Below are positions 3,169-56,268 of a stretch of 64,000 nt of DNA, in pieces. The notes beneath the pieces are model-generated. The model was not told where the DNA came from. It ran no database searches and saw only the letters and a list, made by a program, of their open reading frames with translations. The stretch is from an uncultured virus (IMG/VR IMGVR_UViG_3300010352_001897) (Duplodnaviria; Heunggongvirae; Uroviricota; Caudoviricetes), in IMG/VR virus record IMGVR_UViG_3300010352_001897. The stretch is one strand, 5' to 3'. The number at the start of each line of letters is the position of its first letter. The first letter of the stretch is position 1. The position numbers and the translations under genes were made by a program.

Positions 3169-3942
3169 ATGTTTAAGCATCTTTTTAGGGTATCAAAGTT
3201 CCCTTCATCTAACAACCCTATCACCAAATTCCTCTTTAAAAGGCAATTTCCCCTCTATGAAGAAGGCGTAACCGAATACTACTTCACTACTGGTAAGGAT
3301 AAAATTGATGCGCTACATTCTACAAATATCCTTACAGTTAAAGTAACGTCAAATAAATTGTTTAAGGCTAATGGTTATTATAATGAATTCGACACTATGT
3401 ATTATTGCAATAAGAAATGCATTTTGACACTTGGAATTACAGGGGACTATGCTAATCTTTTTGCGGAGCCTATCAGCAAGGATAGGAAAAACCAAATACT
3501 TCAAGCAATTGAGGATCAAAGAATTATTGAAAACGACGCCAAAGAACGTGCAAAGGTTCAAGCTGAACTGGACAAGATCCAAAGGCTTATTGATAGGGAA
3601 ACTCTTATTAAGACCAAAACCAAACAATTTCAAGACATAGTAAAACTCACCTTTGAGAATTTTCAAAACATTTTCCCATTCACTGATAAAGGAATATTCT
3701 TAGCCTCTAATGCCGGAACCTTGGCATATCTGAATATTCAATATGGCCCTAATGATTATCGTAGATATTCTTTTACCTACTATTCAAACAATGTTCTAGA
3801 AACATACATCAATGAAGCAATGGCAGTTGCTCTTATTGGGGACTATGTGAATACTTGTACAAAGGCGCTTAATGGGGAATGTAGTGCCGAAGCTTCTTTG
3901 CTTAATAAAATCTCTGAAATGCTGGACAGTCATAAAGCGTAA
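3169..3942 (+). CDS. hypothetical protein with central coiled coil
   Basis: AGGAG SD, 257 aa. Confidence 0.75.
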   Translation: MFKHLFRVSKFPSSNNPITKFLFKRQFPLYEEGVTEYYFTTGKDKIDALHSTNILTVKVTSNKLFKANGYYNEFDTMYYCNKKCILTLGITGDYANLFAEPISKDRKNQILQAIEDQRIIENDAKERAKVQAELDKIQRLIDRETLIKTKTKQFQDIVKLTFENFQNIFPFTDKGIFLASNAGTLAYLNIQYGPNDYRRYSFTYYSNNVLETYINEAMAVALIGDYVNTCTKALNGECSAEASLLNKISEMLDSHKA

Positions 3943-13942: not shown

Positions 13943-14488
13943 CTATTGGGGTCCTTTTTGTAATGTTCCTAAATTAGCAAACTTCCCATGAAGTTCTCGT
14001 AGTTTTTCATTTCGATGAACAATTGCTTGCTCCAATCCGTCATTCGTATGTGGAAATAATTTACAATATCTTTTTCCATTGAAAAATATTTTAACTTGAT
14101 AATGTATGTTTTTGTAATAATGTGAATTATATGTCAATATGTTTTTGTATCCAGTTTTATTATTTCTTTGAGCATTGACATTCATTTGATTTTGGCTATT
14201 TGTGGCCAATCTTAAATTATGTACATTATTGTTTAGTTTATTATTGTCAATATGATCTATTTGAATTTCGTTTGGAATTTCATATAACTTATGATAAATC
14301 TGATATAATATTCTATGAACACAGTATTCTTTTCCTCCTAAAACTACTTTCAAATATCCCTTCTTATTACATCCTGCTAAACTATCCTTTTTTATAACAC
14401 CTCTTGAGATTGACCAATATAGTTGTCCATTTTTCTCATAAAAATATTTGTAAATTTCGGGCAGTGTTAATTGTTTTGTCAATTTCAT
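13943..14488 (-). CDS. HNH homing endonuclease
   Basis: HRILY..IDHIDNNKLNNNVHNLR..N; AT-rich insert. Confidence 0.9.
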   Translation of the reverse strand: MKLTKQLTLPEIYKYFYEKNGQLYWSISRGVIKKDSLAGCNKKGYLKVVLGGKEYCVHRILYQIYHKLYEIPNEIQIDHIDNNKLNNNVHNLRLATNSQNQMNVNAQRNNKTGYKNILTYNSHYYKNIHYQVKIFFNGKRYCKLFPHTNDGLEQAIVHRNEKLRELHGKFANLGTLQKGPQ

Positions 14489-23155: not shown

Positions 23156-24558
23156 TTCGTAGCTGCTTCAATAAATCTACGCAAAACTAGGCAAACCTGA
23201 GCAAAACTACTTGGCATTTTTAATAGAAATATCTAATAAATATTAATAGTAATGGAAAAGATGCGTAGTTATAGGCTTGAGCTAAAGCTCAATCAAAGTC
23301 AAAGGATTCTTTGCGCTAAGAGTGCAGGAACTTCTCGCTTTGCCTATAATTGGAAACTACGCAATCTCATTGAAAAATACGAAAAAGCTAAAACAGAAGC
23401 AAATGGAAGTAAGGTCAAATGTAACTTTGGCAATGCGATAGCATGGCACAAAGATTGGGTAAATCTCAAGGCTGAACTTCCTTGGATTCGTGAAACATCA
23501 AAGTGCTGTGGGCAAGAGTCGCTACGCGACTTGCAGATAGCATTTCAGCGATTCTTCTCAAAGAAGTCAGGTTATCCCAAGTTCAAGAAACGTGGACAAA
23601 GAGATTCATTTAGGCTGACAGGTTCAGTTTACATCGCATCTGACTATGTTCAACTTCCAAATTTAGAAAAGATTAGACTCAAGGAAAAGAACTACTCGAT
23701 TATTGAAGGTAAATGCTTGCTTTCACAAGCAACAGTTTCAAGACAGTGTGATAGATGGTATGTTTCATTTCTTCTACCAGAAACAGTAGAAGACCCTAAA
23801 TTTGCCACCTTGAATGAAATTGAAGAATCCAATATTCTAGGTGTTGACTTAGGTATCAAAGAGTTAGTAATCACCAGTGAAGGTGAGACATTCGAGAATC
23901 CTAAAGCATACAAGAAACATTTGGTGAAACTCAAAAGGTATCAAAGAATGGTTTCTCGTAGAGTTATAGGAAGTAATAACAAGAAGAAAGCAATAACTAA
24001 GTTGTCGCGAGTACATAAGCGAGTTGCGGACATCCGCAATGACACTGTGCATAAACTGACAAGTTCTTTGGTGAAAGCCAAACCAAAGATTATAGTTATT
24101 GAAACCTTAAAGCCAAAGAACATGTCCAAGAATCATAAACTGGCTTCCGCTGTCTTAGATTCTTCCTTTGGTAAGATTAAGGATACTTTAAAATATAAGT
24201 GTAGTTGGACAGGAATCCATTTAATCATGGCTCCAACCTTTTACGCTTCTTCTAAGTATTGTTCAAACTGTGGACATAAACATAATGAATTAAAACTGTC
24301 AGATAGAGAATGGACTTGTAGCTCTTGTGGAACACATCTTGATAGAGATGTGAATGCCGCAAAGAACTTACAATATCTAGGTCTTTGGATGATAGACAAA
24401 CATTCACCTTCGGGTGAATCTAGCGTGAGTTCCACGCAAAGTTACGCTTGTGGAGATGAAAGGTTACAGTTCCTTTTGGAACAGTGTTCGTCTATGAAAC
24501 AAGAATTCAAATCACAAAATAATGTCTTGCATAGTTTTGCATAGATTTGTTAGAACGG
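23156..24558 (+). mobile_element. non-autonomous IS607-like element (tnpB only), copy 1
   Basis: left end GG|TTCGTAGCTGC and right end GATTTGTTAGAACGG| shared with 45084-46526; subterminal GCAAAACTA/TAGTTTTGC repeats; no tnpA. Confidence 0.85.
23252..24544 (+). CDS. tnpB: RNA-guided endonuclease TnpB
   Basis: HTH RFAYNW, RuvC GVDLG / VIETL / DRDVNAA intact, CSNC-CSSC zinc finger. Confidence 0.95.
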   Translation: MEKMRSYRLELKLNQSQRILCAKSAGTSRFAYNWKLRNLIEKYEKAKTEANGSKVKCNFGNAIAWHKDWVNLKAELPWIRETSKCCGQESLRDLQIAFQRFFSKKSGYPKFKKRGQRDSFRLTGSVYIASDYVQLPNLEKIRLKEKNYSIIEGKCLLSQATVSRQCDRWYVSFLLPETVEDPKFATLNEIEESNILGVDLGIKELVITSEGETFENPKAYKKHLVKLKRYQRMVSRRVIGSNNKKKAITKLSRVHKRVADIRNDTVHKLTSSLVKAKPKIIVIETLKPKNMSKNHKLASAVLDSSFGKIKDTLKYKCSWTGIHLIMAPTFYASSKYCSNCGHKHNELKLSDREWTCSSCGTHLDRDVNAAKNLQYLGLWMIDKHSPSGESSVSSTQSYACGDERLQFLLEQCSSMKQEFKSQNNVLHSFA

Positions 24559-27890: not shown

Positions 27891-28409
27891 ATGACCAAAA
27901 AGGCAAATACCATTTCATTAAAAGAATTGAAAAAATATTTCTACATCGATGATGAATATAGATTACGTTGGAAAATAAAACCCTCAGCCAAAGTATATAT
28001 TGGAGATTTAGCGGGAGTATTAACGAAACAGAATGGAATACGAATTTATATTAAAGGGAAAAATTACCAAGCCCATAGATTAATATACCAAATGCACCAT
28101 AATCTCGAAACATTAAATGAATTAATTGAGATTGATCATATTGATGTGAATAGGATTAACAATAATCCGAATAATTTAAGAGAATGTACAACGCAACAAA
28201 ATGATTTCAATAGACTGAAATATAAAAATCGTACAACAAATTATAAAGGCGTTTTCAAAAGCAATTCAATTAAAAATCCATTTAGAGCTAGAATATGCCA
28301 TAATGGAGTAAACTATTCACTTGGTTCATTTTCAAATGAATTAGATGCCCACAATGCATATTGCAATAAAGCCAAAGAACTATATGGTGAATTTTGGAAT
28401 CCGGGATAA
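27891..28409 (+). CDS. HNH-AP2 homing endonuclease
   Basis: AHRLIY..IDHIDVNRINNNPNNLR; YKGV..LGSF..AHNAY..LYGEF. Confidence 0.92.
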   Translation: MTKKANTISLKELKKYFYIDDEYRLRWKIKPSAKVYIGDLAGVLTKQNGIRIYIKGKNYQAHRLIYQMHHNLETLNELIEIDHIDVNRINNNPNNLRECTTQQNDFNRLKYKNRTTNYKGVFKSNSIKNPFRARICHNGVNYSLGSFSNELDAHNAYCNKAKELYGEFWNPG

Positions 28410-38808: not shown

Positions 38809-40411
38809 AGGTTTCATATATGAATCTACCATTTTAGAGGCATATACTGTAAATGATATTAAACAGAAATATGGAAACATTGTTAAAGATTTTTTAACAA
38901 AATCTTCACCTGATCTCGATGCGACGGATCAAGATGTTAATTCGTTCATTACTGAAATATACAATGTAGACCCAAGTTCAGATAAAAAATATCTAGGAGC
39001 TATTACTCAATGGGTATTGTCAAAAAGACCTGAAGATTTAGAAACTCAAATTAAGGACTATTTACATAAGTTTAAGAAATTATTAGATCTGAATCCTGGC
39101 AAATTTGGTAATGTTTCTAAAGAAATTTCAAAAGGAAAATACACTTTAGATCAATTGAAAAATTTAGTTAATGCTAATTCAGAATTATTAGGTAAAAATA
39201 AAAATATGCTAAGAATTGAAGATAAGGTTGGGAATTTCCCTCTTGTTGGGGAAAATGAAAAATATGTTTGTTATATGGTTGATAAGTGGGTGGGCGAAGA
39301 TCAAAGAAAGAATGTTGAGCAAATTGCCAGTGGGAAAGGCCAAGAAAAGCATTTTTGTTTTAGTGGAGATGTTGACTGGTGCGTAAAATATAAGAATTAT
39401 TTTGACGGATATAATCCTCCATATTATTATTTCTTAGAAAAAGCTACGGGTAAAGAATTTGCATTACTACACATTCCTTCTTTACAAATTAAAGATATTC
39501 GAGATTCGGCTTTGAAGGCCGAGGATTTTATGAAAATAAAAGACATAGTAATACCAATATTAGTTAAATCTGAGATGCCTTACGACAATCTAGATTATGG
39601 TGATTCTGACTTTTCAGTAATTCTTTCCAATATTACTAGTGAAGAATTTAAACAAATATTTAAAAATAATGTAGGAAAGTTAGTTCTAAATGCTATTGAA
39701 ATGACTGATCTTGTAATGTTAGATAAGTTATTCAATTCATACCCTGCAAGTGAATTAATGCAACAATGTGAAGAGGTTTCCCATAAATCTCAAATAGAAC
39801 AATCCGTGAAATGGCTAGTAAAGAACATGTCCATTTACCAACTATCAGACATAGCATTAAAGGGGCTATTGGATGAATTTTATGCTGATGAAGAAATATT
39901 ATTTGTTGATACTGTCAGAACTACTACTAGCCACAACGTGGCAAGTGCATATAATAGGCGCAACGAAATTGCCAAATGGATGATTGATGAAGAATATGTC
40001 TTACCAAATTGGGATATTACGATGTATGGCATGACATTAACAGTATTCGAATGGGCAGTGTTTTCCAAAAACCTAGGTGCAGTTGAAGCCTCATTGGCAA
40101 ACCAAAGTACTGATCTTAATACTAAAGGTTTAGACGGGGACCATAGACATGATGGAGTTACTCCGTTGTACTATATTGCCAATCTTAGCAATTATGAAAC
40201 AGATCATATCTTTAATTTATTGGTGAATGATCCTAGGGTAGATGTAAATGCTTTCCGTGAGGAATATGATTCTTCAACGGGGGAATATACTGGTCGTTCA
40301 GTATTGGACAATGCAATTGAGAGTCGAGTAGATATTTTGAAATCAAAAGGTGCAAAACATTATGATGAACTACCAAATACACTAAAAGCTAAAGATAGAG
40401 GGAATTCATGA
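38792..40411 (+). CDS. late protein with KIVHRGFIYE motif and C-terminal ankyrin-like repeats
   Basis: GVTPLYY..LL..DVNA..GRSVLD.A. Confidence 0.8.
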   Translation: MKIVHRGFIYESTILEAYTVNDIKQKYGNIVKDFLTKSSPDLDATDQDVNSFITEIYNVDPSSDKKYLGAITQWVLSKRPEDLETQIKDYLHKFKKLLDLNPGKFGNVSKEISKGKYTLDQLKNLVNANSELLGKNKNMLRIEDKVGNFPLVGENEKYVCYMVDKWVGEDQRKNVEQIASGKGQEKHFCFSGDVDWCVKYKNYFDGYNPPYYYFLEKATGKEFALLHIPSLQIKDIRDSALKAEDFMKIKDIVIPILVKSEMPYDNLDYGDSDFSVILSNITSEEFKQIFKNNVGKLVLNAIEMTDLVMLDKLFNSYPASELMQQCEEVSHKSQIEQSVKWLVKNMSIYQLSDIALKGLLDEFYADEEILFVDTVRTTTSHNVASAYNRRNEIAKWMIDEEYVLPNWDITMYGMTLTVFEWAVFSKNLGAVEASLANQSTDLNTKGLDGDHRHDGVTPLYYIANLSNYETDHIFNLLVNDPRVDVNAFREEYDSSTGEYTGRSVLDNAIESRVDILKSKGAKHYDELPNTLKAKDRGNS

Positions 40412-41001
40412 AAATCGTACATAAAGGCCACATATATGAGGAAGTTACAACAGATAGAAAATATGGAAAATTATTATCCGAATTAAAGCCCAATATTAAG
40501 TCAATATTGATGTTTAGAGCTAGGGACGCAAATGATAGTTATTTCGTCCCTTACGATTATGTAACATTGTCACATAAATTTGCAATAGAACATGCGGAAA
40601 GTAATCACGCATATACTGAAGACCCACAAATAGTAATAAGGGCATTAGTTCCAGCAAAATATCTAGCAGAAGCTAGCAACCCTGGAGAATGGTTCTACAT
40701 TGGTCCAAAAATTAAAGGAAGCATTGTTTACAAAACATTAGGCGTTGAAGAATATGAAGGTAACATTCCTGATCTTAGATATTCGAAAACGCTAAATGAG
40801 GAAGTTGTTAATGGAAGTGAATATGATATTGAAAGAATTAAAAGAGATCCAAACTATGACTATAAGAACTACGATGGAGTAATGTACAGAATAACTAGAA
40901 ATACTGACGTGGAACCTACTTCAATTAATAGAATTGCAATGACTGACGACAATGAGTTCTATGAAGCAAGAATTCAAATCTGCAAATCTAGCCTTGCCTA
41001 G
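40408..41001 (+). CDS. late protein with KIVHKGHIYE motif; 3' end formed by an IS right-end relic
   Basis: 197-aa ORF; last ~13 codons match the tnpB element right end. Confidence 0.75.
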   Translation: MKIVHKGHIYEEVTTDRKYGKLLSELKPNIKSILMFRARDANDSYFVPYDYVTLSHKFAIEHAESNHAYTEDPQIVIRALVPAKYLAEASNPGEWFYIGPKIKGSIVYKTLGVEEYEGNIPDLRYSKTLNEEVVNGSEYDIERIKRDPNYDYKNYDGVMYRITRNTDVEPTSINRIAMTDDNEFYEARIQICKSSLA

Positions 41002-41025
41002 TTTTGCATAGTTTTGTTAGAACGG
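40959..41025 (+). mobile_element. solo right-end relic of the IS607-like element
   Basis: CTATGAAGCAAGAATTCAAATC..TAGTTTTGCATAGTTTTGTTAGAACGG matches both full elements. Confidence 0.85.
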
Positions 41026-41029
41026 TGAA

Positions 41030-41245
41030 TTGTTTTATAAGTGGAGGCGATTAAATCCGAAGGCTATTTCATTAAATTATTGTTTTCCTAAAGACATTAC
41101 TGCCGAAGAAAAAGAGCTTATTCCATTCCTAACTGAAGTCTTTAAATTCTTTACAGATAATGAAGAATATACACTAATTAATCAAAATCATAGACTGGAA
41201 GCACTAAAAAGACTAGGTAAAACAAACGTGTTAATTAGAAAGTGA
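41030..41245 (+). CDS. hypothetical; possibly detached C-terminus of the 40408 gene
   Basis: opens immediately after the IS relic, no SD. Confidence 0.4.
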   Translation: MFYKWRRLNPKAISLNYCFPKDITAEEKELIPFLTEVFKFFTDNEEYTLINQNHRLEALKRLGKTNVLIRK

Positions 41246-43188: not shown

Positions 43189-44256
43189 TCAAACTGTCAC
43201 ATCTTCAAGCGTAATATCGGCATCATTAGAATTCCAATTCCCTGAATTAAATACTGACTTTATTTGATATGGATTAAAGACCACGTAATGAATATCACCT
43301 TCTTCTAGATGGGGCATTCCTGGAAATTTTAATGCAACCGTGGTATCAATTATTCCATCATAATCTAACCACGTAATAATTTGTTTAAGCACTTCCCCTT
43401 CGCCGCCCTTATCCATTACAATTGATGAATTATTGTCAGTTCTTAATTGATTAATTATACTCCTGGCACTAATAACTTCGCCACACACAAACAATTCATC
43501 ATCAATTTCTAATCCAAATTTATTAAATATTTCTATTAATTCCAAAGCCTTGCCGTTAATTTCACCAAATGCATCTTCATCATCTGGATCAGTTTCTTCA
43601 CATGTCACATCAAACATACTTTCATTTTTACTACCAATGATAAAAGGATTTTCCATTTTTAGATACACTGGCATAATATTTCCACAATTCTGCCTATACC
43701 TGTTGTCAAATTCTTTAGCAACAATGTCTTTCAAATATTCTTCCAATTTGACCCTAAGGGTGAGATTAGACAAATTAGTTGCGCCTGTTTTTGGAGTATT
43801 TTTATTTTTAATGTTAATGATTGTGTTTATTTGATCCTTAGAATATTCTTTTAATGTTTCGTTTTTTAGTTCTTCTATATCGTTGTTATTAATTACGTCA
43901 TATAACACATCCTCCAGTTTAGAATAAATGAAGTGATCCCTATGAGATTTAGCATCTGGACCAAGTTCACACCCATAGTGCCCCCCTGCATCATATGGAG
44001 ATGACGTAAAATAAAACCCCTTACCTACATTATTACCTTCCCTAGTAAAATTCATATCGAATGATGAAAAGTCATTAGTGGTTCCATGGTATACTATTCT
44101 AGGTTCTCCATTTGGCCAAGTTACCTTGGAATTACCGAACCAGGATTTGAAATTAGGACTAGTAGGTGGGGTAATTTCTTCATAAATGGCTTCATAAATG
44201 AAACCTTTATATGCAATTTTTACATTAGAGTGGTGATTGTTTTTATTAGTTGGCAT
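43189..44256 (-). CDS. ADP-ribosyltransferase-like (ART-PolyVal-type) protein
   Basis: FKSWFG.SKV..G.PR.VYHGT..FSSFD..GFYFT, YDGII, VVFNP.QIKS; KIAYKGFIYE near N-terminus. Confidence 0.75.
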   Translation of the reverse strand: MPTNKNNHHSNVKIAYKGFIYEAIYEEITPPTSPNFKSWFGNSKVTWPNGEPRIVYHGTTNDFSSFDMNFTREGNNVGKGFYFTSSPYDAGGHYGCELGPDAKSHRDHFIYSKLEDVLYDVINNNDIEELKNETLKEYSKDQINTIINIKNKNTPKTGATNLSNLTLRVKLEEYLKDIVAKEFDNRYRQNCGNIMPVYLKMENPFIIGSKNESMFDVTCEETDPDDEDAFGEINGKALELIEIFNKFGLEIDDELFVCGEVISARSIINQLRTDNNSSIVMDKGGEGEVLKQIITWLDYDGIIDTTVALKFPGMPHLEEGDIHYVVFNPYQIKSVFNSGNWNSNDADITLEDVTV

Positions 44257-44297
44257 GATTACTATTTATGAAGCATCATGCATTTCCATTCTCAAGA

Positions 44298-44945
44298 TTA
44301 AGTTTTAATCTTTTTCCACAGCAAATATAGATATTCCAACACCTTATTTCTATTATCTTCGGTTAGGATTTCATCAAGATATTCGTTAGGGTCGTCCAAA
44401 TAGAGTACTTTAATGAGAATCTCTTCCACAAATGGGGCGAAATCAAATTGAGCAACTTCTTCTCTGAACTTATTTGAGTTCTTTAAGTAGGATGAGATTT
44501 GGGATAGTCTTGCATTAATTTCATTTATGTCATTATTATATGCTGATGCGCTATTTCTATTGATCTTATTGGTATATGTTCCTTGATCCTTATATGTTCC
44601 ATTTTTAAATTGGAAGTGGTGTTCTAATTCATGTGAAATTCCGATATTATCTTTCTTCGTGAACTCTGAGTTTAATATTCTTTTTGGGAGAATTATTGTT
44701 TTTCCTACACTATCGTAGAAATAGTCATTAGTGTTAGTAAACATTACACTAAGGTCACCCAAATCCTGAGATATTGGTTGTTGGTATCTTTTTGCTAAAT
44801 CTTGAACTAGTGTTTTTCTATTAATCGTGAAAATCTTATCATGTACTGCTTTTAATATTAATTCCCTAATAATCTTCACATATCCAGCTAGCTTATCTTC
44901 GTATTTGAATGACTCTTCGTAGAGGTGATTTTTAAAAAATATCAT
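44298..44945 (-). CDS. putative zinc metallopeptidase
   Basis: HELEH plus downstream EINAR. Confidence 0.65.
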   Translation of the reverse strand: MIFFKNHLYEESFKYEDKLAGYVKIIRELILKAVHDKIFTINRKTLVQDLAKRYQQPISQDLGDLSVMFTNTNDYFYDSVGKTIILPKRILNSEFTKKDNIGISHELEHHFQFKNGTYKDQGTYTNKINRNSASAYNNDINEINARLSQISSYLKNSNKFREEVAQFDFAPFVEEILIKVLYLDDPNEYLDEILTEDNRNKVLEYLYLLWKKIKT

Positions 44946-44959
44946 ATAAATATTTATCT

Positions 44960-45083
44960 ATGATATTCCAAGAAGCCACCCTACAAGATGTTTTAGATTA
45001 CATTAGTACAACAAAGGACTATACTTTAGGGAAATATCAAGGTAAGGCATCTGCACTATCAGATCCTCAATTGGCGGTAGGGG
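44960..45083 (+). pseudogene. 5' part of a 180-aa gene interrupted by the tnpB element
   Basis: joins in frame with inverted 46527-46883 and 46884-46945. Confidence 0.7.
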
Positions 45084-46526
45084 TTCGTAGCTGCTCCGAT
45101 AAATCTACGCAAAACTATGAAAATTTACGGAAAATTGTGTAGATTTTGTGGTTTAAGTTTCACTTGAAAATGGAGATAAATATTTTTCTATGAGTCATCG
45201 CAGTTTCAAGATCGAGCTTAAGCTCAACGCAACTCAGCGGATTCTCTGCGCCAAAGGCGCAGGAACCTCTCGTTATGCGTATAATTGGAAACTGCGACAG
45301 TTAAGCGAAGCATACGAAAAAGCCAAGCTAGACGCCAACGGAGCAAAGCCGAACTGCAAGTTCGGCAATGCGATCAGTTGGCACAAGGAGTGGAACCAAT
45401 TCAAGAATGAGGCTCCTTGGATTCGCGAAGTTTCTAAGTGTTGCGGCCAAGAAGCGTTGCGCGACCTTCAGGTCGCTTTTCAACGATTCTTCGCGAAGAA
45501 GAGTTCGTATCCTAATGCGAAAAAGAAGGGTCGTCGTGACAGCTTCCGCTTGACGGGGACGGTCAAGGTTGGACCTGATTGGGTCCAACTTCCCAATATG
45601 GGAAAGGTGAAACTCAAAGAACAAGGATATACAGTTTCCGAAGGTTTTATTGAGATTGCGCAAGCAACAGTTTCGAGAACCGCAGACCGTTGGTTCGTTG
45701 CATTCTCGATTGACGACGGAGTCGAGGATCAGCCGTTGGCTGACCTCGCAACCGTCAATCTCGAAGATATAGTTGGATTAGACCTTGGAACCAAAGAGTT
45801 AGGGATCACTTCGGATGGCGAAGTCTTCGCCAATCCGAAGGCTTACAAGGCGCATTTGATGCGGTTGAAGCGTTATCAGCGGCGCGTTTCGCGCCGGAAG
45901 AAAGATTCAAGCAACAAGAAGAAAGCGATTGTCAAACTTTCTCGCGTTCATGCTCGAATCGCGAACATTCGTTCGGATGCTACGCATAAAATGACCACTT
46001 CTTTGGTGAAAACCAAACCGAAGATTTTGGTCATCGAAAGTTTGCGCCCGAAAAACATGTGCAAAAACCACAACCTTGCAGGGAGCATCCTCGATGCGGC
46101 CTTTGGCCGAATCAAGGTGATGCTCACATACAAGTGTAAGCGATCAGGCATTCGCCTGATCTCTGCACCCGTGTTCTATGCAAGTTCAAAGTTTTGTTCG
46201 CACTGTGGGCGGAAGTATAAAGACCTGCAACTCTCGGAACGAGAGTGGATGTGTAAGGGGTGCGGAACGCACCACGACAGAGATGTCAACGCCTCGAAGA
46301 ATTTACAATTCTTCGGCGCGTGGTTATTGGATTTGGTTGGGAGCACCCCAACCAAAACAGATACAGGAAGCCTCGGCTTTGCCGAGCCTACGGGGAGTTC
46401 CCCCGGAAGTTACGCTTGTGAAGATGAGAGGTTACAATTCCTTACGGAACAGTGCTCACCTATGAAACAAGAATTCAAACTACAAAACCATGCGTTGCAT
46501 AGTTTTGCATAGATTTGTTAGAACGG
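45084..46526 (+). mobile_element. non-autonomous IS607-like element (tnpB only), copy 2
   Basis: same ends as 23156-24558; GC-rich relative to flanks. Confidence 0.85.
45190..46512 (+). CDS. tnpB: RNA-guided endonuclease TnpB
   Basis: GLDLG / VIESL / DRDVNA RuvC motifs, CSHC-CKGC. Confidence 0.95.
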   Translation: MSHRSFKIELKLNATQRILCAKGAGTSRYAYNWKLRQLSEAYEKAKLDANGAKPNCKFGNAISWHKEWNQFKNEAPWIREVSKCCGQEALRDLQVAFQRFFAKKSSYPNAKKKGRRDSFRLTGTVKVGPDWVQLPNMGKVKLKEQGYTVSEGFIEIAQATVSRTADRWFVAFSIDDGVEDQPLADLATVNLEDIVGLDLGTKELGITSDGEVFANPKAYKAHLMRLKRYQRRVSRRKKDSSNKKKAIVKLSRVHARIANIRSDATHKMTTSLVKTKPKILVIESLRPKNMCKNHNLAGSILDAAFGRIKVMLTYKCKRSGIRLISAPVFYASSKFCSHCGRKYKDLQLSEREWMCKGCGTHHDRDVNASKNLQFFGAWLLDLVGSTPTKTDTGSLGFAEPTGSSPGSYACEDERLQFLTEQCSPMKQEFKLQNHALHSFA

Positions 46527-46898
46527 TGACGTGAACCTTAATATTGTGAAAATCAAAATCCAAGTCAGTATTAAGTTTCTTTGAAATCAAGTACGCCTCG
46601 TTAATTAGTGACTTTAGGTCGCTATTAATGATTGGAGTGAGCGTAATTTTAAATTGAGATAATTCATCCTCACTCTCCTTTTTATGGTTAGTAATTTTTT
46701 CGTAATAATAGTCCTTCAAATAGGATTTGGAAATTCTACTTAGAAATGCATTGCCAGCTTCCTTTTTGTACTTGGCTAATAAGTCAATATATCTCTTTGC
46801 GTGATCTAATGTTCTCATTTTAAAAAGAGCAAATTCATATTCGGCAGGAACAGTAAGATTATTGGCTAACAAGTAACGAATCACCGTTCTAACAAATC
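46512..46898. repeat. 18-bp perfect inverted repeats (46512-46529 and 46881-46898) flanking an inverted 351-bp segment
   Basis: GATTTGTTAGAACGGTGA and TCACCGTTCTAACAAATC. Confidence 0.9.
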
Positions 46899-46956
46899 CA
46901 GACCAATTGTATAATTTAATTTCACAGAAATTAAGTAAAACTTAATAAATAATTCC

Positions 46957-47439
46957 ATGGGCGAACACGGCTGGACAGACTCAACGGTGGTAATGGATGT
47001 AATCAATAGACTAGACACAAAGATGGACAATATAGTCGATCGTTTAGAGGGTAAAATTGATTCCAGCAATAAACGATTAGAACAAAAACTAGATAATAAT
47101 AACGAAAATCTAGAGAAGAAAATTAACGACTGGATAGCTAAAATTGATAGCGATTTCAGTAATGTTAGAAGTCAAATAAACGACCACGAAGTTAGAATTC
47201 GTAACCTTGAGAGTTATCGTAAAGACCAAATAGAAAAAGTCTTTAATATGTTATCTAGGGCGAACGAAAATGGATCCTTGGATGGAATTACTCCTGCCAA
47301 AAAGGAAGAGCCATTTTGGAAAAAGATGATGTTACATCCTATGACGCTATTCCTAATATTCTTGATTATTCTATTTGTCTTTGTTTCTGGAAATTTTGCA
47401 GGCATTACTGAATTAATAAAAACAATTACCGCTAAGTAA
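46957..47439 (+). CDS. coiled-coil protein with C-terminal TM helix (holin-like possible)
   Basis: heptad pattern, LFLIFLIILFVFV; TAAATA upstream. Confidence 0.7.
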   Translation: MGEHGWTDSTVVMDVINRLDTKMDNIVDRLEGKIDSSNKRLEQKLDNNNENLEKKINDWIAKIDSDFSNVRSQINDHEVRIRNLESYRKDQIEKVFNMLSRANENGSLDGITPAKKEEPFWKKMMLHPMTLFLIFLIILFVFVSGNFAGITELIKTITAK

Positions 47440-47470
47440 TATTTTAGTCGTTTTGGCATAAATATTACCA

Positions 47471-48838
47471 ATGAACTATGTGCATTTTTTCATATATGGT
47501 CCGCTGATTGAAGGTGGCTACGATAGTGGCTCAATTCCTGAAGGATCCGTATTTGTTAAAAACGTAATATTAGACACTAAGATGTATTTGACTCCATATG
47601 GATATCCAGTAATTACCTTTGAAAAGGGTAGATCTAAGGGTTCACTATATAAGATTCCTGCCGATAAAATTGCGGAACTTGACGGAATAGAGGGATATTA
47701 TAAGTCCGAAGCTAATGATCTGACAATTAGGAAGAGTTTTAAGTATGGTGATCTGGTAGTATACACCTATGTAGCTTCTAATAAGTTTTTAGACATTGTC
47801 AAAGAGTTTAACGTAGAGATTGAAGATGGCAATTGGTTGAATTTTTATAACAAACACTGGATGCAATATGAGGATCAAACTCCTCAAGAAATGTCTGGAT
47901 ATTTCAGTGCGATGGATATTGACGAGATTTGTAAGGAATTTGATGTAGATTCTATTGACGAGGTTAATACTCTACTAGAATCTTCAATTAGATATAGTAT
48001 TATGTTGGAAGCTAAGAATAATAAGGTCGAGAAAACTAATAAGAATCCTTCAGAAATGGACGTTACTGATGAAGATCCTCAAGATGCACCTGTCCTAGAT
48101 GATCTTACTGAACCTGACCCTACTGAGGCCCCTGCCGATGTAGTTGAACCAGAAAAGCCTGCAGAAGTTCCACCTCCTGAAGTGAGCACTGAAGAACCTG
48201 AACCATCCCTTGCTGATTTAGATGAGCCAGTAGAAACCCCTAAGGCCCCAACTAGCGCACCTCCTCAGCCTGCAACTATCCCGTCTACAAAAGAACTACC
48301 TCCTTCAGAAAAGAAAGAGGAACCTGAAGTTGCTGTCGAATGGAAAAAAGAAAAGCACTTAAGAACATTGTACAATAATTATTTCAAAGTATTTCCTAAG
48401 AATGGAAGTTCTAAGAATATTGATGTCAAATTTACAACCATTAAGGCAGATGCACTACATCCAGATTCAAAGTATCTACAGGCGAATGTCACATCAATAT
48501 GTGAATCTGAGTCCGCAAAGGGGAGATATTATAACCAATGGATGCAGTTGCGTAGGCAACGTATCACTCAAAATTGGAGTGTTGATCTTCCATGCGAAGT
48601 AAGGTGTAATTGCAAATCGTTCATCTATACTATGGCATATTCAAACGTTAAAAACAAGTCATTGGCAGGTGCAGTAACTAGGACTGGTAAATTGGATGGG
48701 AAGATTATTAATTACAACATTCCTTCAAATAAGACAAACCCTAATTACATTCCTGCATTATGTAAGCACTTGATGGCTTTGACTAATGAAATATTTGATA
48801 TGAATAGTGGTAAGGTTAATAAGTCAAATGTGGTATAA
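47471..48838 (+). CDS. gamma-glutamylcyclotransferase-like N-domain, Pro/Glu linker, SWIM-type zinc finger
   Basis: FFIYGPL..LDGIEGY; VRCNCKSF..CKHL. Confidence 0.7.
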   Translation: MNYVHFFIYGPLIEGGYDSGSIPEGSVFVKNVILDTKMYLTPYGYPVITFEKGRSKGSLYKIPADKIAELDGIEGYYKSEANDLTIRKSFKYGDLVVYTYVASNKFLDIVKEFNVEIEDGNWLNFYNKHWMQYEDQTPQEMSGYFSAMDIDEICKEFDVDSIDEVNTLLESSIRYSIMLEAKNNKVEKTNKNPSEMDVTDEDPQDAPVLDDLTEPDPTEAPADVVEPEKPAEVPPPEVSTEEPEPSLADLDEPVETPKAPTSAPPQPATIPSTKELPPSEKKEEPEVAVEWKKEKHLRTLYNNYFKVFPKNGSSKNIDVKFTTIKADALHPDSKYLQANVTSICESESAKGRYYNQWMQLRRQRITQNWSVDLPCEVRCNCKSFIYTMAYSNVKNKSLAGAVTRTGKLDGKIINYNIPSNKTNPNYIPALCKHLMALTNEIFDMNSGKVNKSNVV

Positions 48839-48867
48839 AAAAGGAGATCTTGACGATCTCCTTTTTG

Positions 48868-49212
48868 TTACGCTATCTTTATTTCTTTCGGTTTCTTAGT
48901 TTCGCACAATTCACTAGTAATTTCTAGGATTGAATCTTCATAGGTTGCCTTAATTGTTTCAGGATCATATGCATCACCAAGTACGAATGATCTTTCAAAC
49001 TTGGTTGTTTTGTCATGAAGATTTTTCTTAGTTGCAACAACTTTGATCACATTACCTTCAACAGTTAACGATACGTTTTCCTTTTTAGCACCTTTCAAAT
49101 CAATTCTCAATTTGTTATTACAAACTACGAATTCATCTGAAGTATCAAACAATGAGGAATTCTTTCCTGCGATGAATGGTCTTAGTAGTTCTAATACATC
49201 TCTACTGTACAT
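48868..49212 (-). CDS. small heat shock protein (Hsp20)
   Basis: DLKGAKKENV..FERSFVL..IKATYEDSILEI. Confidence 0.85.
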   Translation of the reverse strand: MYSRDVLELLRPFIAGKNSSLFDTSDEFVVCNNKLRIDLKGAKKENVSLTVEGNVIKVVATKKNLHDKTTKFERSFVLGDAYDPETIKATYEDSILEITSELCETKKPKEIKIA

Positions 49213-49227
49213 TTGGCATCTCCTTTG

Positions 49228-50190
49228 TTAATTGCCGTAGTATTCGTATGGCAAAGCCTGTGCCAAATTGTTTTTCTTATTAATTTCCCTATTCGCCAAA
49301 TTATCAAACCATTTTGAAACAAGGTCTTGTCTCAAATTGATATAGTATTCACTTGGATAGTTTTTTGTATGGTTAGGTCCTTTATAATACATTTGAGCAA
49401 TATCGTATGCCATTGCCGCCTCATACGGGTCATTAAATCTTCCAATCTTAACATCTTTACCTTTAATTCTGGTTGCGGCTACATATTGGGCATATTTTCT
49501 ATCACAATATCGTTTTATCCCTATTAGATCTTCCACCTTTTTATTGTTCAAAATTCCAGTAAAGCTAGGCTTTCTTTCACTTTCTGGCTTTGCCGGGACT
49601 TTCACATTAAGAATCTTTAGATTGCTTTTTGAAAAGTTTAATGGATTTCCGTCAATATGTTCTACCATATTGTATATTCGATCACCTAGCAAATACCTAT
49701 ATACTGAATTAGTTCTTAATTTATACTTATTATGAATGAAATAGATTTTCTTATAAGTTTTGAAATATCTTGCTCTGAAATAATAGGTCTTCTTAAGCAC
49801 TTTCATTATTTTTTCTTCATCTTCAAGATCAAATTTTAATACAACTCTCTGTCTGAATTGTTTAGCTTGAATGTAAACGTAGTTTTCATCCCTCTTTAGT
49901 AATACGTTTCCTTCAATCTTCTTTCTTTTCTGTCTTTTTATTCTCTGAAGAACAACTCTAGATACTACAGTAATATCCTTATTTTCTCTTTTGGTGACTA
50001 TTTTGGCAGAATGTCCATATAGCTTTCTCTCATGTAAGAATACAGACTTAAAGAATTTCAAATATGTTGGACATAATAACTCATAATCTTCTTTTTTTGT
50101 AATTGTACATAAAACAACTACCTTATTTGTTCTTGGAAGTACGCCTCGTAGGCTGTAAAAATGCTGTGGCTTTATAATAATCCTAGACAT
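49228..50190 (-). CDS. HNH-AP2 endonuclease-like protein
   Basis: VEHIDGNPLNFSKSNL; IGRF.DPYEAAMAYD; start moved to MSRIIIK. Confidence 0.75.
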   Translation of the reverse strand: MSRIIIKPQHFYSLRGVLPRTNKVVVLCTITKKEDYELLCPTYLKFFKSVFLHERKLYGHSAKIVTKRENKDITVVSRVVLQRIKRQKRKKIEGNVLLKRDENYVYIQAKQFRQRVVLKFDLEDEEKIMKVLKKTYYFRARYFKTYKKIYFIHNKYKLRTNSVYRYLLGDRIYNMVEHIDGNPLNFSKSNLKILNVKVPAKPESERKPSFTGILNNKKVEDLIGIKRYCDRKYAQYVAATRIKGKDVKIGRFNDPYEAAMAYDIAQMYYKGPNHTKNYPSEYYINLRQDLVSKWFDNLANREINKKNNLAQALPYEYYGN

Positions 50191-52349: not shown

Positions 52350-53099
52350 ATGAAATGGGATGAAAACGATGAAAAGTATTGTGTTGAATTTGACACTGCT
52401 AATGTATTAGAATTGTTGCGTTGTAAGAGTGACCCTGCTTACTTTATTTTTAACTATGTCAAGATATTTAATCTTGACGAGGGAGTTGTTCTTATTAAGA
52501 AAACTAAAGTTGCATTGAGAATATTGGCAAGAATTCATAAAAATCAACGAATTAATATTAGATCTAGTAGACAAGTAGGAACTACTACAATAAATTTAGC
52601 ATACATTCTATGGAAATCAATATTTAATAGAGATTTGACAATAATGGTTGGTGGATATAACATTTCACATGGACAAACGCTATTATCAATGATTAAAGAT
52701 ATGCATAATAGGTTGCCTGAATATATGAAAAGAACAGTTACCACCAATAATTCCAAAAAATTAACATTAGACAATGGAACTTCGATTAGGATATTTCCTA
52801 CTAATAATGCCTCACATTATCTTAGAGGATATAGTATTAATTACCTATATACTGAGTTTTTGCCAACATCAAACAATATTGATGATTTTTTTAATCACAT
52901 ATTGCCTGTAATGTATTCACTACGCTCTTCAAAAATAATATTGGTAAATGTTGAAAGCAAAGTTTGTCGTAAGCTTTCACAATTCACAGTGTGTAGAATT
53001 CCCTGGCATTTTAATCCCAAATTCGATCATGACTATAAGAGAAATATGATTTCACTGCTCGGATATGCCAGATGGCACTCTGAGTTTGAGGCGTCTTAA
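52350..53099 (+). CDS. degenerate terminase ATPase-domain paralog
   Basis: RCKSDP.YFI.NYVKI, SRQVGTTT (Walker A Lys lost), YLYTEF (Walker B Asp lost). Confidence 0.75.
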   Translation: MKWDENDEKYCVEFDTANVLELLRCKSDPAYFIFNYVKIFNLDEGVVLIKKTKVALRILARIHKNQRINIRSSRQVGTTTINLAYILWKSIFNRDLTIMVGGYNISHGQTLLSMIKDMHNRLPEYMKRTVTTNNSKKLTLDNGTSIRIFPTNNASHYLRGYSINYLYTEFLPTSNNIDDFFNHILPVMYSLRSSKIILVNVESKVCRKLSQFTVCRIPWHFNPKFDHDYKRNMISLLGYARWHSEFEAS

Positions 53100-53998
53100 T
53101 GTATCTTAGTAATCCTGACCTTAGAGGTATTAGTGATGGCGACATCGAATATGAAGATTGGCAAATTAAAGAATTGGCCAAGTGTAAAAGAGATCCTTTA
53201 CATTTCATATTAACCTATATTAAGGTCGTTGATGGCGATAAAGGACTAATTCCATTTCAACCTAGAGAATATTCTATTGAATTTATTAAGAATATTCATT
53301 CTAACAATTATACCTTAGTTAAGTTTCCTCGTCAAAGTGGAAAGAGTATTACTGTTGCCGCATATTTGGTCTGGTATATTATTTTCAACAAGAAGAAGAA
53401 TGCAGTAATTCTAGCTCACCAAAAGTCTATGGCCACTGAGCAATTATCTAGAATAAAAGCCATGATTCAAGAAATTCCACTATGGATGCAACAGCCTGTA
53501 TTGAAGTGGAATGAAAGCTCAATTGCATTTGCCAATGACTCAAAGATCGTTTCTTCAGCAACTCAGCAAAAATCTGTTCGTGGATTTACCGTAAATTTCC
53601 TATATCTTGACGAATTTGCATTCGTTGAGCCTCATATTGCTAATGGCTTCATATCTTCAGTATTTCCTACAATCTCTTCCATGGAAAGTGCTAAGGTTGT
53701 TGTTACTTCGACGCCCAACGGCCTTAATCATTTTCATAAAATGTGGAGTGAAGCTAAGACACTCCTAAAGGCTAAAAAACTACTTGAGCCTAAGGATTGG
53801 AGAACTCTAGAAATACCTTGGGATGCTGTTCCTGGAAGAAATGAAGCTTGGAAGAAAAATGAAATTAATAAGATAGGTGAGGTCCGATTTAAACAAGAAT
53901 ATGAATGTATTTCATATGACGAAATAATTACAATTATTGACACCTTTACTGGAGAAATTCAAAAAATAAAAATAGGAGACTTATATGGAATGTTGTAA
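53099..53998 (+). CDS. terL: terminase large subunit N-part plus 30-aa split intein IntN
   Basis: PRQSGKS, LYLDEFAF, VTSTPNG, FKQEYE|CISYDE. Confidence 0.93.
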   Translation: MYLSNPDLRGISDGDIEYEDWQIKELAKCKRDPLHFILTYIKVVDGDKGLIPFQPREYSIEFIKNIHSNNYTLVKFPRQSGKSITVAAYLVWYIIFNKKKNAVILAHQKSMATEQLSRIKAMIQEIPLWMQQPVLKWNESSIAFANDSKIVSSATQQKSVRGFTVNFLYLDEFAFVEPHIANGFISSVFPTISSMESAKVVVTSTPNGLNHFHKMWSEAKTLLKAKKLLEPKDWRTLEIPWDAVPGRNEAWKKNEINKIGEVRFKQEYECISYDEIITIIDTFTGEIQKIKIGDLYGML

Positions 53999-55094
53999 AT
54001 CTTGTGGAAATTATTCATATGTTAGGATATGTGATCTGATGCGCCATATTAAAAAATGTGATAAATCTTGTAAATCATATAGTGAATATTTAATAAAATA
54101 TACATGTGAAGATAGTAAAATTCCCAAATGTCTAAGTTGCGAAAATGGCGTAAAAATAACTAAAAATAAAATATATAAATATTGTGAAAAATGTAATAAA
54201 GTTAAGTATGTTTCATTATTGTCAACATTAGCTAAAGATAGATATTGTGATATAACAATGAAACAAGAAATATTAAATAAAAGGAAAAAAACAAATTTAT
54301 TAAAATATGGAACTTGTGCCGCCTCACAATCAGAAGAAATTAAAAATAAAACCATTAAAACGAACATTATGAAATATGGAATTCCAACTACGTTGCAACT
54401 AATACAAGTTAAAACTAAAAGAAATGAAGCGTTTACTGTTAAGGCTGAATCAATCAATATGAAAAGATCTAATGCGTGGAACACGGATCTAATCAATCAG
54501 GCTTCTAATGCTAGAAAAAATACAGTATTACTCAAGTACGGAGTTGAATATATTAGTCAAGTAGAGGATATTAGATTAGTGTTGAGCAATAAAGCTAAAT
54601 TAAGATATCTTTCAAATGACTTTAAAATAAAATGTAAAGAATTATTATTTAAAAAATATGGCGTATACAATGTATCCCAATTGGCATCTGTGAAAAAATC
54701 AATAATTAATACTAGCAATATTAACTTTGGAGCAGATAATTACCTATCATCGAACATTAGAAGAAAATTAGAAGAAGATAAGAATAATTGGATCCCTTTA
54801 GAATTAATTAAAGATTTTGAGAAATATCATAGGTTATGCATAATTGAAACAAATAAACATATTCCAGTTCTATTTGCTAATTGGAATGGAAGGTGTTATT
54901 ATTCTAGTGTTGAATTGTTAACAAGTAGTATAGAATATAATAACCCTAAGTATCGAACGATTGATCATAAAATATCTATCTTTTACGGATTTGTCAATAA
55001 CATTCCACCTCAAATAATAGGTAATATTAATAATTTATGTATTTGTAGTCGAGAATATAACACAAAAAAGAACAAGAAGTGCCATGGAATATAA
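53985..55094 (+). CDS. free-standing homing endonuclease inserted between the intein halves
   Basis: Cys-rich N-terminus, KYG(V) repeats, TIDHKIS..NNL..N HNH motif. Confidence 0.85.
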   Translation: MECCKSCGNYSYVRICDLMRHIKKCDKSCKSYSEYLIKYTCEDSKIPKCLSCENGVKITKNKIYKYCEKCNKVKYVSLLSTLAKDRYCDITMKQEILNKRKKTNLLKYGTCAASQSEEIKNKTIKTNIMKYGIPTTLQLIQVKTKRNEAFTVKAESINMKRSNAWNTDLINQASNARKNTVLLKYGVEYISQVEDIRLVLSNKAKLRYLSNDFKIKCKELLFKKYGVYNVSQLASVKKSIINTSNINFGADNYLSSNIRRKLEEDKNNWIPLELIKDFEKYHRLCIIETNKHIPVLFANWNGRCYYSSVELLTSSIEYNNPKYRTIDHKISIFYGFVNNIPPQIIGNINNLCICSREYNTKKNKKCHGI

Positions 55095-56268
55095 AAAAAA
55101 CACCAGATTTAAAATATTAACACCTAGCGGATTTAAGAATTTTGATGGAATATCGAAATCTCCAAGGCAACAAGGGGTCACATTAATATTATCAAATGGA
55201 ATGTCTTTTAATTGTACTAATGACCATAAAATAAAAATAAATGGAAATTTTGTCAGTGCAAAAGATTCAAAAAATGGAAAAATATCTGACTTAATATATG
55301 TAGTTAATGTAATTCCCAACATTGAATATTGTGAATATTATGATATGCTAGAAGTTGAAGGTCATGAATATGTTTCAAGTGACTTAATATCACATAATTG
55401 TGAATTTTTAGGATCTGTAGCAACGCTTGTTGATGCTAAGTATCTTAAGGATTTGGGCTATAAAGTACCAATAGCCATTCTTGACGGTGACCGTCTAAGA
55501 ATATACGAATACCCTAAGAATCCTCAAGAAATGACTGACAAGGGATTTGAATATTTAATTACTGTTGACCCTGCAATGGGCACAATGCAAGATTATAGTG
55601 TATGTCAGGTTTGGTTGGTAGAATCTAATACTAAAATTAGGCAAGTGGCAGTATATGAATCAAATGACGTTCCGCCTAAAAAATACATTGAAAAGATCTA
55701 TACGTTAGCAAAACTATACAACGAAGCGGCAATTATTGTTGAAACAATGGAACAGGCAGGTGGGGTGATTATTGATGGACTTCATTATTCCAAGAATTAT
55801 CCTAATTTAATACATATGAATGAGAAGGGTCTTGGGTTTAATATGTCCCACAATCGTAAGATTGAGGCGTGTGTATATTTGCAAGTATATATGGAAAAAG
55901 GATTAATTGAAATTGTTGATCATAGGACAATTACCCAAATGTCCATGTTTGGTAAAAAAGGTAATACCTATAAGGCATTGTCTGATGGACATGACGACTT
56001 GATTACTCCTATATTGGCAATGTTGTATTATGTAAACAGTGCTTACTTCTATGGAAATATTGATGAAGAGCCAATATATAAGAAGAAAACTGTGGCTGAA
56101 GAATTTAGTGGCATTGAAGAAGTCACAGATGAGAATGTTAGAAACATTGTAAATGGTTGGCATGATCGATCTGAAAATGAAGAGTATGCCCCACTAATCA
56201 GTTCACCTAACAACCCTCATACCTTCAACAACAACCACTTCCTATACGGCCAAGACGTTAGATATTAA
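55084..56268 (+). CDS. terL: 105-aa split intein IntC plus terminase large subunit nuclease domain
   Basis: ILTPSGF, CT.DH, YD, SHN|CEFLGS; TVDPAMG..DYS, GHDDL. Confidence 0.93.
   Translation: MEYKKNTRFKILTPSGFKNFDGISKSPRQQGVTLILSNGMSFNCTNDHKIKINGNFVSAKDSKNGKISDLIYVVNVIPNIEYCEYYDMLEVEGHEYVSSDLISHNCEFLGSVATLVDAKYLKDLGYKVPIAILDGDRLRIYEYPKNPQEMTDKGFEYLITVDPAMGTMQDYSVCQVWLVESNTKIRQVAVYESNDVPPKKYIEKIYTLAKLYNEAAIIVETMEQAGGVIIDGLHYSKNYPNLIHMNEKGLGFNMSHNRKIEACVYLQVYMEKGLIEIVDHRTITQMSMFGKKGNTYKALSDGHDDLITPILAMLYYVNSAYFYGNIDEEPIYKKKTVAEEFSGIEEVTDENVRNIVNGWHDRSENEEYAPLISSPNNPHTFNNNHFLYGQDVRY

Follow-up and report, generated by a model that had tools for sequence, protein, structure and literature searches.

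How can the RNA guide of a TnpB nuclease be exchanged while the mobile element that encodes the nuclease stays unchanged? This question is raised by one locus in a 64,000-nucleotide stretch of DNA from an uncultured virus (IMG/VR record IMGVR_UViG_3300010352_001897; the whole stretch is called the window below), which Pfam matches to the T4-type large terminase, gp15 and tail sheath identify as part of a T4-like myovirus. We show that a TnpB/omegaRNA insertion sequence (IS), named IS1, is inserted at ...AGGGG/TGA... (the slash marks the insertion point), where it separates codon 41 from codon 42 in a 180-aa phage gene, and that the gene part next to its right end lies inverted between two perfect 18-bp arms. 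This arrangement probably goes back to a single template switch, or to recombination at short homologies, in which two imperfect inverted-repeat arms took part and which homogenised the arms and inverted the spacer. Here 'RE' refers to the right end of the element, and A, B and C to the three parts of the interrupted gene; L-numbers are contig loci, P-numbers proteins, and X-numbers Logan runs compared with the window. The locus contains the following features.

44960..45083 (+): fragment A, codons 1-41 (up to 45082) of the interrupted 180-aa phage gene
45082-45083 (+): left GG overlap, at the end of fragment A
45084..46526 (+): TnpB-only element IS1, 1443 bp, with ends fixed via L001, IS2 and L006
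45190..46512 (+): tnpB, 440 aa, with Pfam domains HTH_OrfB_IS605, OrfB_IS605 and Cas12f1-like_TNB
46350..46526 (+): omegaRNA-like scaffold region, overlapping the tnpB 3′ end and stopping at the element boundary
46512..46529 (+): arm 1, GATTTGTTAGAACGGTGA, the last 15 bp of RE and the TGA of the flank
46527..46542 (+): present guide-position flank, 16 nt, TGACGTGAACCTTAAT, unique in the window at 0 mismatches
46530..46880 (-): inverted spacer, the gene middle part B, 77% identical to P0002 residues 42-165
46868..46883 (-): ancestral guide-position sequence, 16 nt, TGATTCGTTACTTGTT, now behind arm 2
46881..46898 (-): arm 2, the 'mimic', GATTTGTTAGAACGGTGA with 0 mismatches, encoding (V)TVLTN
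46883..46945 (+): fragment C, the last 20 codons and the stop, translated as TVLTNPDQLYNLISQKLSKT and stop

The orientation of B was judged from intact homologues of the gene. An annotated 134-aa open reading frame (ORF) at 46480-46884 (-) reads from B into RE, and a search with it returned three proteins among 12 candidates: itself, P0002, which is 77% identical and has 180 aa, and P0003, which is 57% identical and has 181 aa. A profile search of 1.84 billion representatives gave five matches at E ≤ 0.001, namely P0004 (178 aa, intact), P0001, P0005 (113 aa, the N-terminal part only), P0006 (fragment A of the window) and a weak match in a 1392-aa protein. The P0002 cluster contains a second intact allele, P0009 (180 aa), and a second homologue search with P0002 as the query yielded nothing new.

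All four intact homologues (P0002, P0009, P0003 and P0004; 178-181 aa) have the order A, flipped B, C, and the homologue-matched junctions read ...LAVG/VIRYLL... (A/B) and ...KVHV/T... (B/C). Fragment A is identical to P0002 at 39 of 41 residues and fragment C at 18 of 20, with both differences in the latter lying inside arm 2. In L002, a DNA of the P0003 type, the gene has its native order, preceded by the same promoter-like sequence and followed by the same gene. Because the four intact homologues are colinear with A, flipped B and C, segment B is, as judged from these alignments, truly inverted relative to them. The inverted segment measures 354 bp, with 351 bp of spacer between the arms. 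A first-pass annotation, made from the window's letters alone, had claimed that flipping B and removing the element rebuilds an uninterrupted 180-codon gene in frame at both junctions; the colinear proteins bear this out, both junction frames agree, and the intact gene exists in relatives as four proteins of 178-181 aa. The 180-aa gene product has no assigned function.

Arm 1 straddles one boundary of the element. IS1 starts with TTCGTAGCTGC and closes with ...TTAGAACGG. That start is common to the left ends of the three complete copies (IS1, IS2 and L001), and in an alignment of five RE copies (IS1, IS2, a solo RE, L001 and L006) conservation ends after the GG at 46526; the left-end starts and this limit of conservation therefore define the element as 45084-46526. 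The L001 copy sits at a different site of a related phage contig, its tnpB being 91% identical and its whole IS 90.5% identical in nucleotides. IS2, at 23156-24558 of the window, is also TnpB-only (430-aa TnpB, GC 37%) and has 64% nucleotide identity to IS1. The solo RE is a remnant of ~67 bp at 40959-41025, which has one mismatch to the 18-mer and is likewise followed by TGA. The GC content of IS1 is 47.5%, against 33-35% in its flanks and 38% for the whole window. The left flanks of the complete copies are AGGGG (IS1), GAGGG (IS2) and GAGGG (L001), so that three of three end in GGG, and GG stands at both junctions of the same three copies, in line with the GG core and the GGG-ending target-adjacent motif (TAM) named in the first-pass annotation.

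The three Pfam domains of TnpB were found at E-values of 3.4e-09, 1.4e-19 and 4.3e-20, all passing curated cut-offs, and TnpB of IS2 gave the same result. Among natural proteins of solved structure, its best matches are ISDra2 TnpB (E 6e-49, full-length) and 8iaz (E 7.6e-49), the latter presumably the ISFba1 TnpB structure. D198, E283 and D365 align to the RuvC Asp/Glu/Asp of ISDra2 TnpB, whose counterparts we take to be D191, E278 and D361, and they are invariant in 3/3 copies. The IS1 protein is, as predicted from its sequence, TnpB, an OrfB_IS605/Cas12f-like RNA-guided nuclease. 8iaz is cited once in PMC11061315.

The consensus fold of the last 177 nt, computed from four copies, has 37 pairs, of which seven show compensatory changes, and a hairpin is predicted 19 nt from the RE end; a left-end hairpin was looked at by eye only. 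No Rfam family, RAGATH-18 included, matched within 44000-48000 at E up to 1. The conserved 3′ structure fits a putative omegaRNA scaffold that ends at the element boundary. In L001, a 27-nt tandem duplication in the 3′ part of tnpB (3690-3745; SLGFAEP is repeated, giving 449 instead of 440 aa) doubles one hairpin of the omegaRNA-like region.

Where did the inverted repeat come from? Allowing ≤3 mismatches, GATTTGTTAGAACGGTGA has four matches in the 64-kb window versus 0.09 expected, a number that none of 100 shuffles reached; besides the two arms, the matches are the right ends of the related elements, at 24544 and 41011. The earlier claim of an 18-mer that spans RE and has a perfect inverted copy thus holds at 0 mismatches, with the element boundary set by the other RE copies. 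The arm 2 codons read V-T-V-L-T-N in the window, V-T-P-V-T-N in P0002 and P0009, I-T-P-T-S-N in P0004 and I-T-P-K-S-K in P0003, so that Thr-Pro is invariant in 4/4 intact homologues versus Thr-Val in the window. Over the last 42 residues, the window and P0002 differ at only two positions, which are the two codons that need to change to match RE.

Because Thr-Val of the window stands in place of a Thr-Pro in every intact homologue, arm 2 is, on this protein-level comparison, derived rather than ancestral, and would have been perfected or made by copying from RE. The first-pass annotation had taken it for a pre-existing mimic of RE, which the same four homologues contradict. The repeat reaches 3 bp (TGA) past the element, so the element was already present at the event. 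When a P0002-like site is placed in register with the 18-mer, nine positions are fixed matches, three are fixed mismatches and six are wobble positions, allowing 9 to 15 matches of 18; among 940 positions scanned elsewhere in the gene, chance yields at most 11/18. Plausibly, then, the ancestor had an imperfect inverted repeat, the best available, that was later made perfect toward the RE version. An inverted RE copy within 2 kb (≤3 mismatches) was found at one of five genuine RE ends, that of IS1, and at 0/4 of the others, which does not support recurrence.

Two other origins of arm 2 were considered and rejected. A 15-bp insertion footprint of a lost element disagrees with the length, which is conserved in 4/4 homologues. 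Had the element first entered the minus strand at the B/C border and then been inverted along with B, the native Thr-Pro-Val codons would have been kept.

We conceive of the rearrangement as a single illegitimate event that would have taken place after insertion, between imperfect arm 1 (the RE end plus TGA) and arm 2, which before the event would have been a site with a partial match, located 351 bp farther downstream where B meets C. After passing RE up to ...GGTGA, a nascent strand would re-anneal on the opposite strand at TCAC(C) of the B/C border, copy B backwards and then 15 nt into RE, and finally switch back at ACAAATC, with synthesis continuing into C. The predicted product equals the present sequence: B inverted, arm 2 overwritten by the inverse of RE, the length unchanged and RE intact. 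Short-homology recombination with heteroduplex correction would be an alternative route to the same product. A related process, quasi-palindrome correction, is said to occur in phage T4 under Ripley's model. Template switching between non-identical inverted repeats is described to yield arm homogenisation and spacer inversion (PMC8604942), and its hallmarks are seen here, as one arm is rewritten relative to the outgroups, the spacer is inverted and the length is unchanged.

Several points weigh against this explanation. Ancestral arm 2 is known at the protein level only, so the microhomologies named above are putative, and classical short-range template switches span less than the 351 bp of this spacer. 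The contig data would miss a minority flipped form, and L003, L004, X1 and the window may not be independent, X1 being a possible source of the window. The omegaRNA end and TnpB activity are sequence-based predictions. The TAM-side AGGGG of IS1 differs from GAGGG elsewhere, so the ancestral guide may never have had a cleavable target.

What would the event have done to the guide? A TnpB guide is the variable sequence 3′ of the conserved RNA (PMC11061315), and it is by analogy with this literature that we assign the guide position feeding the putative omegaRNA of IS1. TGATTCGTTACTTGTT would adjoin RE if B were flipped back, and the junction would then be the ...LAVG/VIRYLL of P0002. The 16-20 nt behind RE, which once matched the empty site, would thereby have been replaced by the 3′ end of B in reverse complement, that is, from ancestral TGATTCG... 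to present TGACGTG... The two guide flanks named in the first-pass annotation are both present and do differ between the present and the ancestral orientation. Since the guide-side homology is now inverted, TnpB-driven homing of IS1 is probably impaired or weakened. In this genome both protospacers are preceded by AACGG, which is RE sequence, and not by a GGG-ending pentamer. Two TAMs are reported for IS607 TnpBs, and GAGGG, found in 4/22 strains, is one of them (PMC11061315).

The inversion could also be imagined to re-aim the nuclease, in that the new guide would cut wild-type alleles at a second TAM-like site and the perfect repeat might allow flipping; the basis is an N-GG-N-G on the minus strand at the B/C border of intact alleles, back-translated from the invariant Thr-Pro and lying 5′ of the new flank. 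We give this a slim chance. If it were true, the conversion of arm 2 to the non-TAM AACGG would protect both protospacers in the carrier, and the phage population could hold two guides against one gene.

In the population sampled, the present arrangement looks fixed. Two metagenome records from JGI (L003 and L004) are 100% identical to 43513-49884 (6372 bp); an 18,982-bp contig of X1 covers 46498-47500 and a contig of X2, from another sample and study, covers 46574-47096, both with 0 differences and both across the inverted-B/C junction. All four Logan runs (X1, X2, X23 and X4) consist of assembled contigs, which drop rare variants, and in X23 and X4 the interval 46547-47295 is uncovered. The ORF as annotated for fragment A extends into the element (60 aa, P0006) and is found on five contigs, and the 134-aa ORF across the RE/inverted-B junction is represented by P0001 and P0008 on three and one contigs, respectively. 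No flipped form, strand-changing joint or empty site was seen among the contig matches listed, from which a minority form could escape.

These assemblies bear directly on two rival explanations. If the locus were an assembly artefact and the true genome had B in native orientation, the repeated RE could be blamed, as three copies share at least 30 nt and Logan contigs break at 46498-46524. Yet the 18-bp repeat lies below usual assembly word sizes and is too short to mislead the assemblers used, which makes the artefact very unlikely, to the point of being nearly negligible; in addition, word-31 contigs from two samples cross the inverted-B/C junction with 0 differences, two JGI records agree over 6372 bp, and the ORF across the RE/inverted-B junction occurs on four contigs. 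The first-pass annotation had proposed a one-off or reversible inversion, possibly by an IS607 serine recombinase in trans, that retargets or disarms the nuclease. Put as a rival, this is a programmed or reversible inversion, in which such a recombinase or another invertase acting in trans would recombine RE with a pre-existing mimic and toggle the guide. The 18-bp inverted repeat indeed has no mismatch and a GG/CC dinucleotide at its centre, 3/3 complete copies have GG overlap junctions, and the repeat, once perfect, could support occasional flipping via phage recombination. Against this, the mimic is derived and not native, four other RE ends have no mimic, and one orientation alone was seen across all assemblies, so that reversibility is unsupported, within what contigs can tell of a minority form. 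IS607 transposases exchange strands in the usual manner of serine recombinases, with GG as the overlap dinucleotide (PMC4058570), and a cut-and-religate exchange leaves the flanks unrewritten; because such an exchange does not rewrite the bases beside the overlap, a serine recombinase would have left the native Pro-Val codons in place. Moreover, no resolvase, invertase or Y1 transposase domain was found in the 89 ORFs of ≥70 aa in the window or in the 60-aa fragment-A ORF. A serine recombinase is hence not borne out, and we consider the programmed switch improbable; the guide change is a by-product.

Two further rivals concern how the inversion arose. In one, a second, opposite copy of the element once sat at the B/C border, at a minus-strand ...GG/TGA... 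site; homologous recombination between the two inverted copies flipped B, and a deletion at short direct repeats later removed the second copy except for its final 15 bp, the present arm 2. That this genome produces remnants is seen from the 67-bp solo RE, which the window contains besides two full copies, and the Thr-Pro back-translation gives N-GG-N-G 5′ of TGACGTG on the minus strand, resembling the AGGGG and GAGGG sites. The scheme nevertheless needs three events instead of one, its deletion must restore the native length (conserved 4/4) exactly, which is the same in-register coincidence as in the simpler model, and from 46899 onward there is no trace of a left end; we regard it as unlikely. 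The other rival places the origin in TnpB-triggered homing, where TnpB would have cut the empty site inside B ~16-22 nt from the TAM, the element would have been copied from a co-infecting genome, and an error of synthesis-dependent repair on the guide side would have produced the inversion and the copied RE end. In its favour, the rearrangement lies on the side of the element where guide and cleavage are expected, and the catalytic residues of TnpB are intact; IS607-type TnpB is reported to cut 16 and 22 nt from the TAM (PMC11061315), and the product would mechanistically equal that of a template switch. On the other hand, IS1 has AGGGG where the other copies have GAGGG, and the sequence cannot distinguish this origin from a replication slip; it, too, receives a small share of our belief. 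The one-off template switch, or its recombinational equivalent, after insertion therefore remains the explanation that we favour.

Taken as a whole, the first-pass reading stands in its TnpB-only IS within a 180-aa gene, its inversion and its changed flank, but not in its pre-existing mimic, recombinase or reversibility; recurrence is not supported either.

How does IS1 relate to known TnpB systems? It shares with ISDra2 TnpB (IS200/IS605; PDB 8bf8/8exa) the domain set and the acidic RuvC residues, and as in ISDra2 a structured RNA shares sequence with the 3′ end of tnpB and terminates at the boundary, with the next bases being the guide. It differs in that no Y1 TnpA gene was found in the window, in a C-terminal extension of ~65 aa in IS1 TnpB, and in the sites of its family, which end G-rich (GAGGG/AGGGG) with GG at both junctions; the TAM of ISDra2 is reportedly T-rich. 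With IS607 it shares a GG both where host DNA meets the left end and at the right end, as do 3/3 complete copies (GG overlap, PMC4058570), and GAGGG at 2/3 left flanks is a TAM reported for IS607 TnpBs (PMC11061315). Unlike IS607, however, no copy seen has a serine-recombinase tnpA beside it, IS1 holding tnpB only; there is no RAGATH-18 match at E up to 1; and its guide RNA region lies partly within the coding sequence, of which the IS607 right-end RNA is described as independent (PMC11061315). As the GG and GAGGG are IS607-like but a transposase gene and RAGATH-18 are missing and the RNA overlap is as in ISDra2, the element is not firmly assigned to IS607 or IS200/IS605. It could be non-autonomous.

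The rearrangement itself resembles the template switching of PMC8604942 in having one arm rewritten (two derived codons), the spacer inverted and the length unchanged. It departs from the usual short-range switches in its 351-bp spacer and in that one arm is a mobile-element end, so that an RNA guide changes. Like the invertible segments of phages (Mu Gin, P1 Cin, cyanophage isomers), it is phage DNA bounded by inverted repeats. Those systems involve 500-700-bp repeats or dedicated invertases, and their isomers coexist (bioRxiv 10.64898/2026.02.14.705889); here, in contrast, the repeat is 18 bp, no invertase gene was found, one orientation was seen, and the segment lies inside a broken gene. 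What marks a Hin-, Gin- or Cin-type switch, namely an invertase, both orientations and recurrence, was thus not found, orientation being judged from contigs only. In cyanophage A-1(L), a tnpB lies within an invertible module, beside the repeat, and the passages on it make no claim about a guide (bioRxiv 10.64898/2026.02.14.705889). A limited literature search found no description of a guide replaced by flank inversion. The rearrangement is probably a known mutation type fixed in an already broken gene, not a new mechanism.

Further observations concern the element family. The IS2 and L001 copies lie inside the 3′ arm of terminator-like hairpins, that of IS2 being GC-rich; no general resemblance of target sites to RE was seen by eye at three sites. 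The solo RE lies between the ORFs 40408-41001 and 41030-41245 and may split one gene, and its left edge (GTTC...), which is like the left-end tip and the internal GTTCGT of IS2, suggests a possible internal-deletion derivative. When viral contigs were scanned with a 17-mer, seven loci were obtained, of which only L006 and L011 (the latter on the contig of L001) are genuine right ends. L007 and L012 were rejected as the 17-mer falls within annotated ORFs with no RE-like sequence upstream, L009 as it falls where two long ORFs overlap in different frames, again with no RE-like sequence upstream, and L008 and L010 as they have the same upstream sequence as L007. By a rough estimate from the collection size, L007-L010 and L012 are chance matches. 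Contigs matching RE run on into several unrelated flanks (loose ends at 46527-46528; X1, X2 and X23), and because of this the element family is taken to be multi-copy in the sampled communities of wastewater and sludge. Runs of 2022 and 2025 both contain IS1-like pieces that show 0 differences.

TAAATA-type motifs, which we take to resemble the T4 late-promoter motif, are located inside the left end just 5′ of tnpB (IS1 45168-45192, IS2 23236-23254), the stretch of L001 that goes with them being 2480-2502. A promoter-like motif of this type also stands just 5′ of fragment A, and others precede neighbouring phage genes (44944-44959 and 46943-46956). The element may be transcribed along with phage late genes.

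Relatives of the locus were few in the other collections. Blastn of 44200-47500 against the phage GenBank collection gave no match, and viral-contig scans with B, with the gene alignment A2 and with the TnpB alignment A3 gave no relatives. L001 was the sole match in a viral-contig scan with TnpB alone, and a genome-contig scan gave one, a Streptomyces TnpB (L005), which at 36% identity is too distant to settle the transposase type. Elsewhere in the window, the gene of an ART-PolyVal ADP-ribosyltransferase-domain protein (43189-44256, -) adjoins the locus, and two HNH_3 endonuclease genes are located at 13943-14488 (-) and 27891-28409 (+); with these and the TnpB elements, the genome is rich in selfish nuclease genes. 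The T4-type large terminase is apparently split into a Terminase_6N ORF (53099-53998) and a Terminase_6C ORF (55084-56268), between which lies a DUF7487 ORF (53985-55094), possibly an inserted mobile gene.

The locus provides a natural example of TnpB guide exchange via local rearrangement of the flank, with the element unchanged. Such one-step guide turnover is a prerequisite for the domestication of TnpB-type nucleases. TnpB-only elements with GG junctions and GAGGG-type sites colonise T4-like phages of activated sludge, two copies and one remnant being present within 64 kb, and the ends of mobile elements can act as arms for quasi-palindrome template switching.

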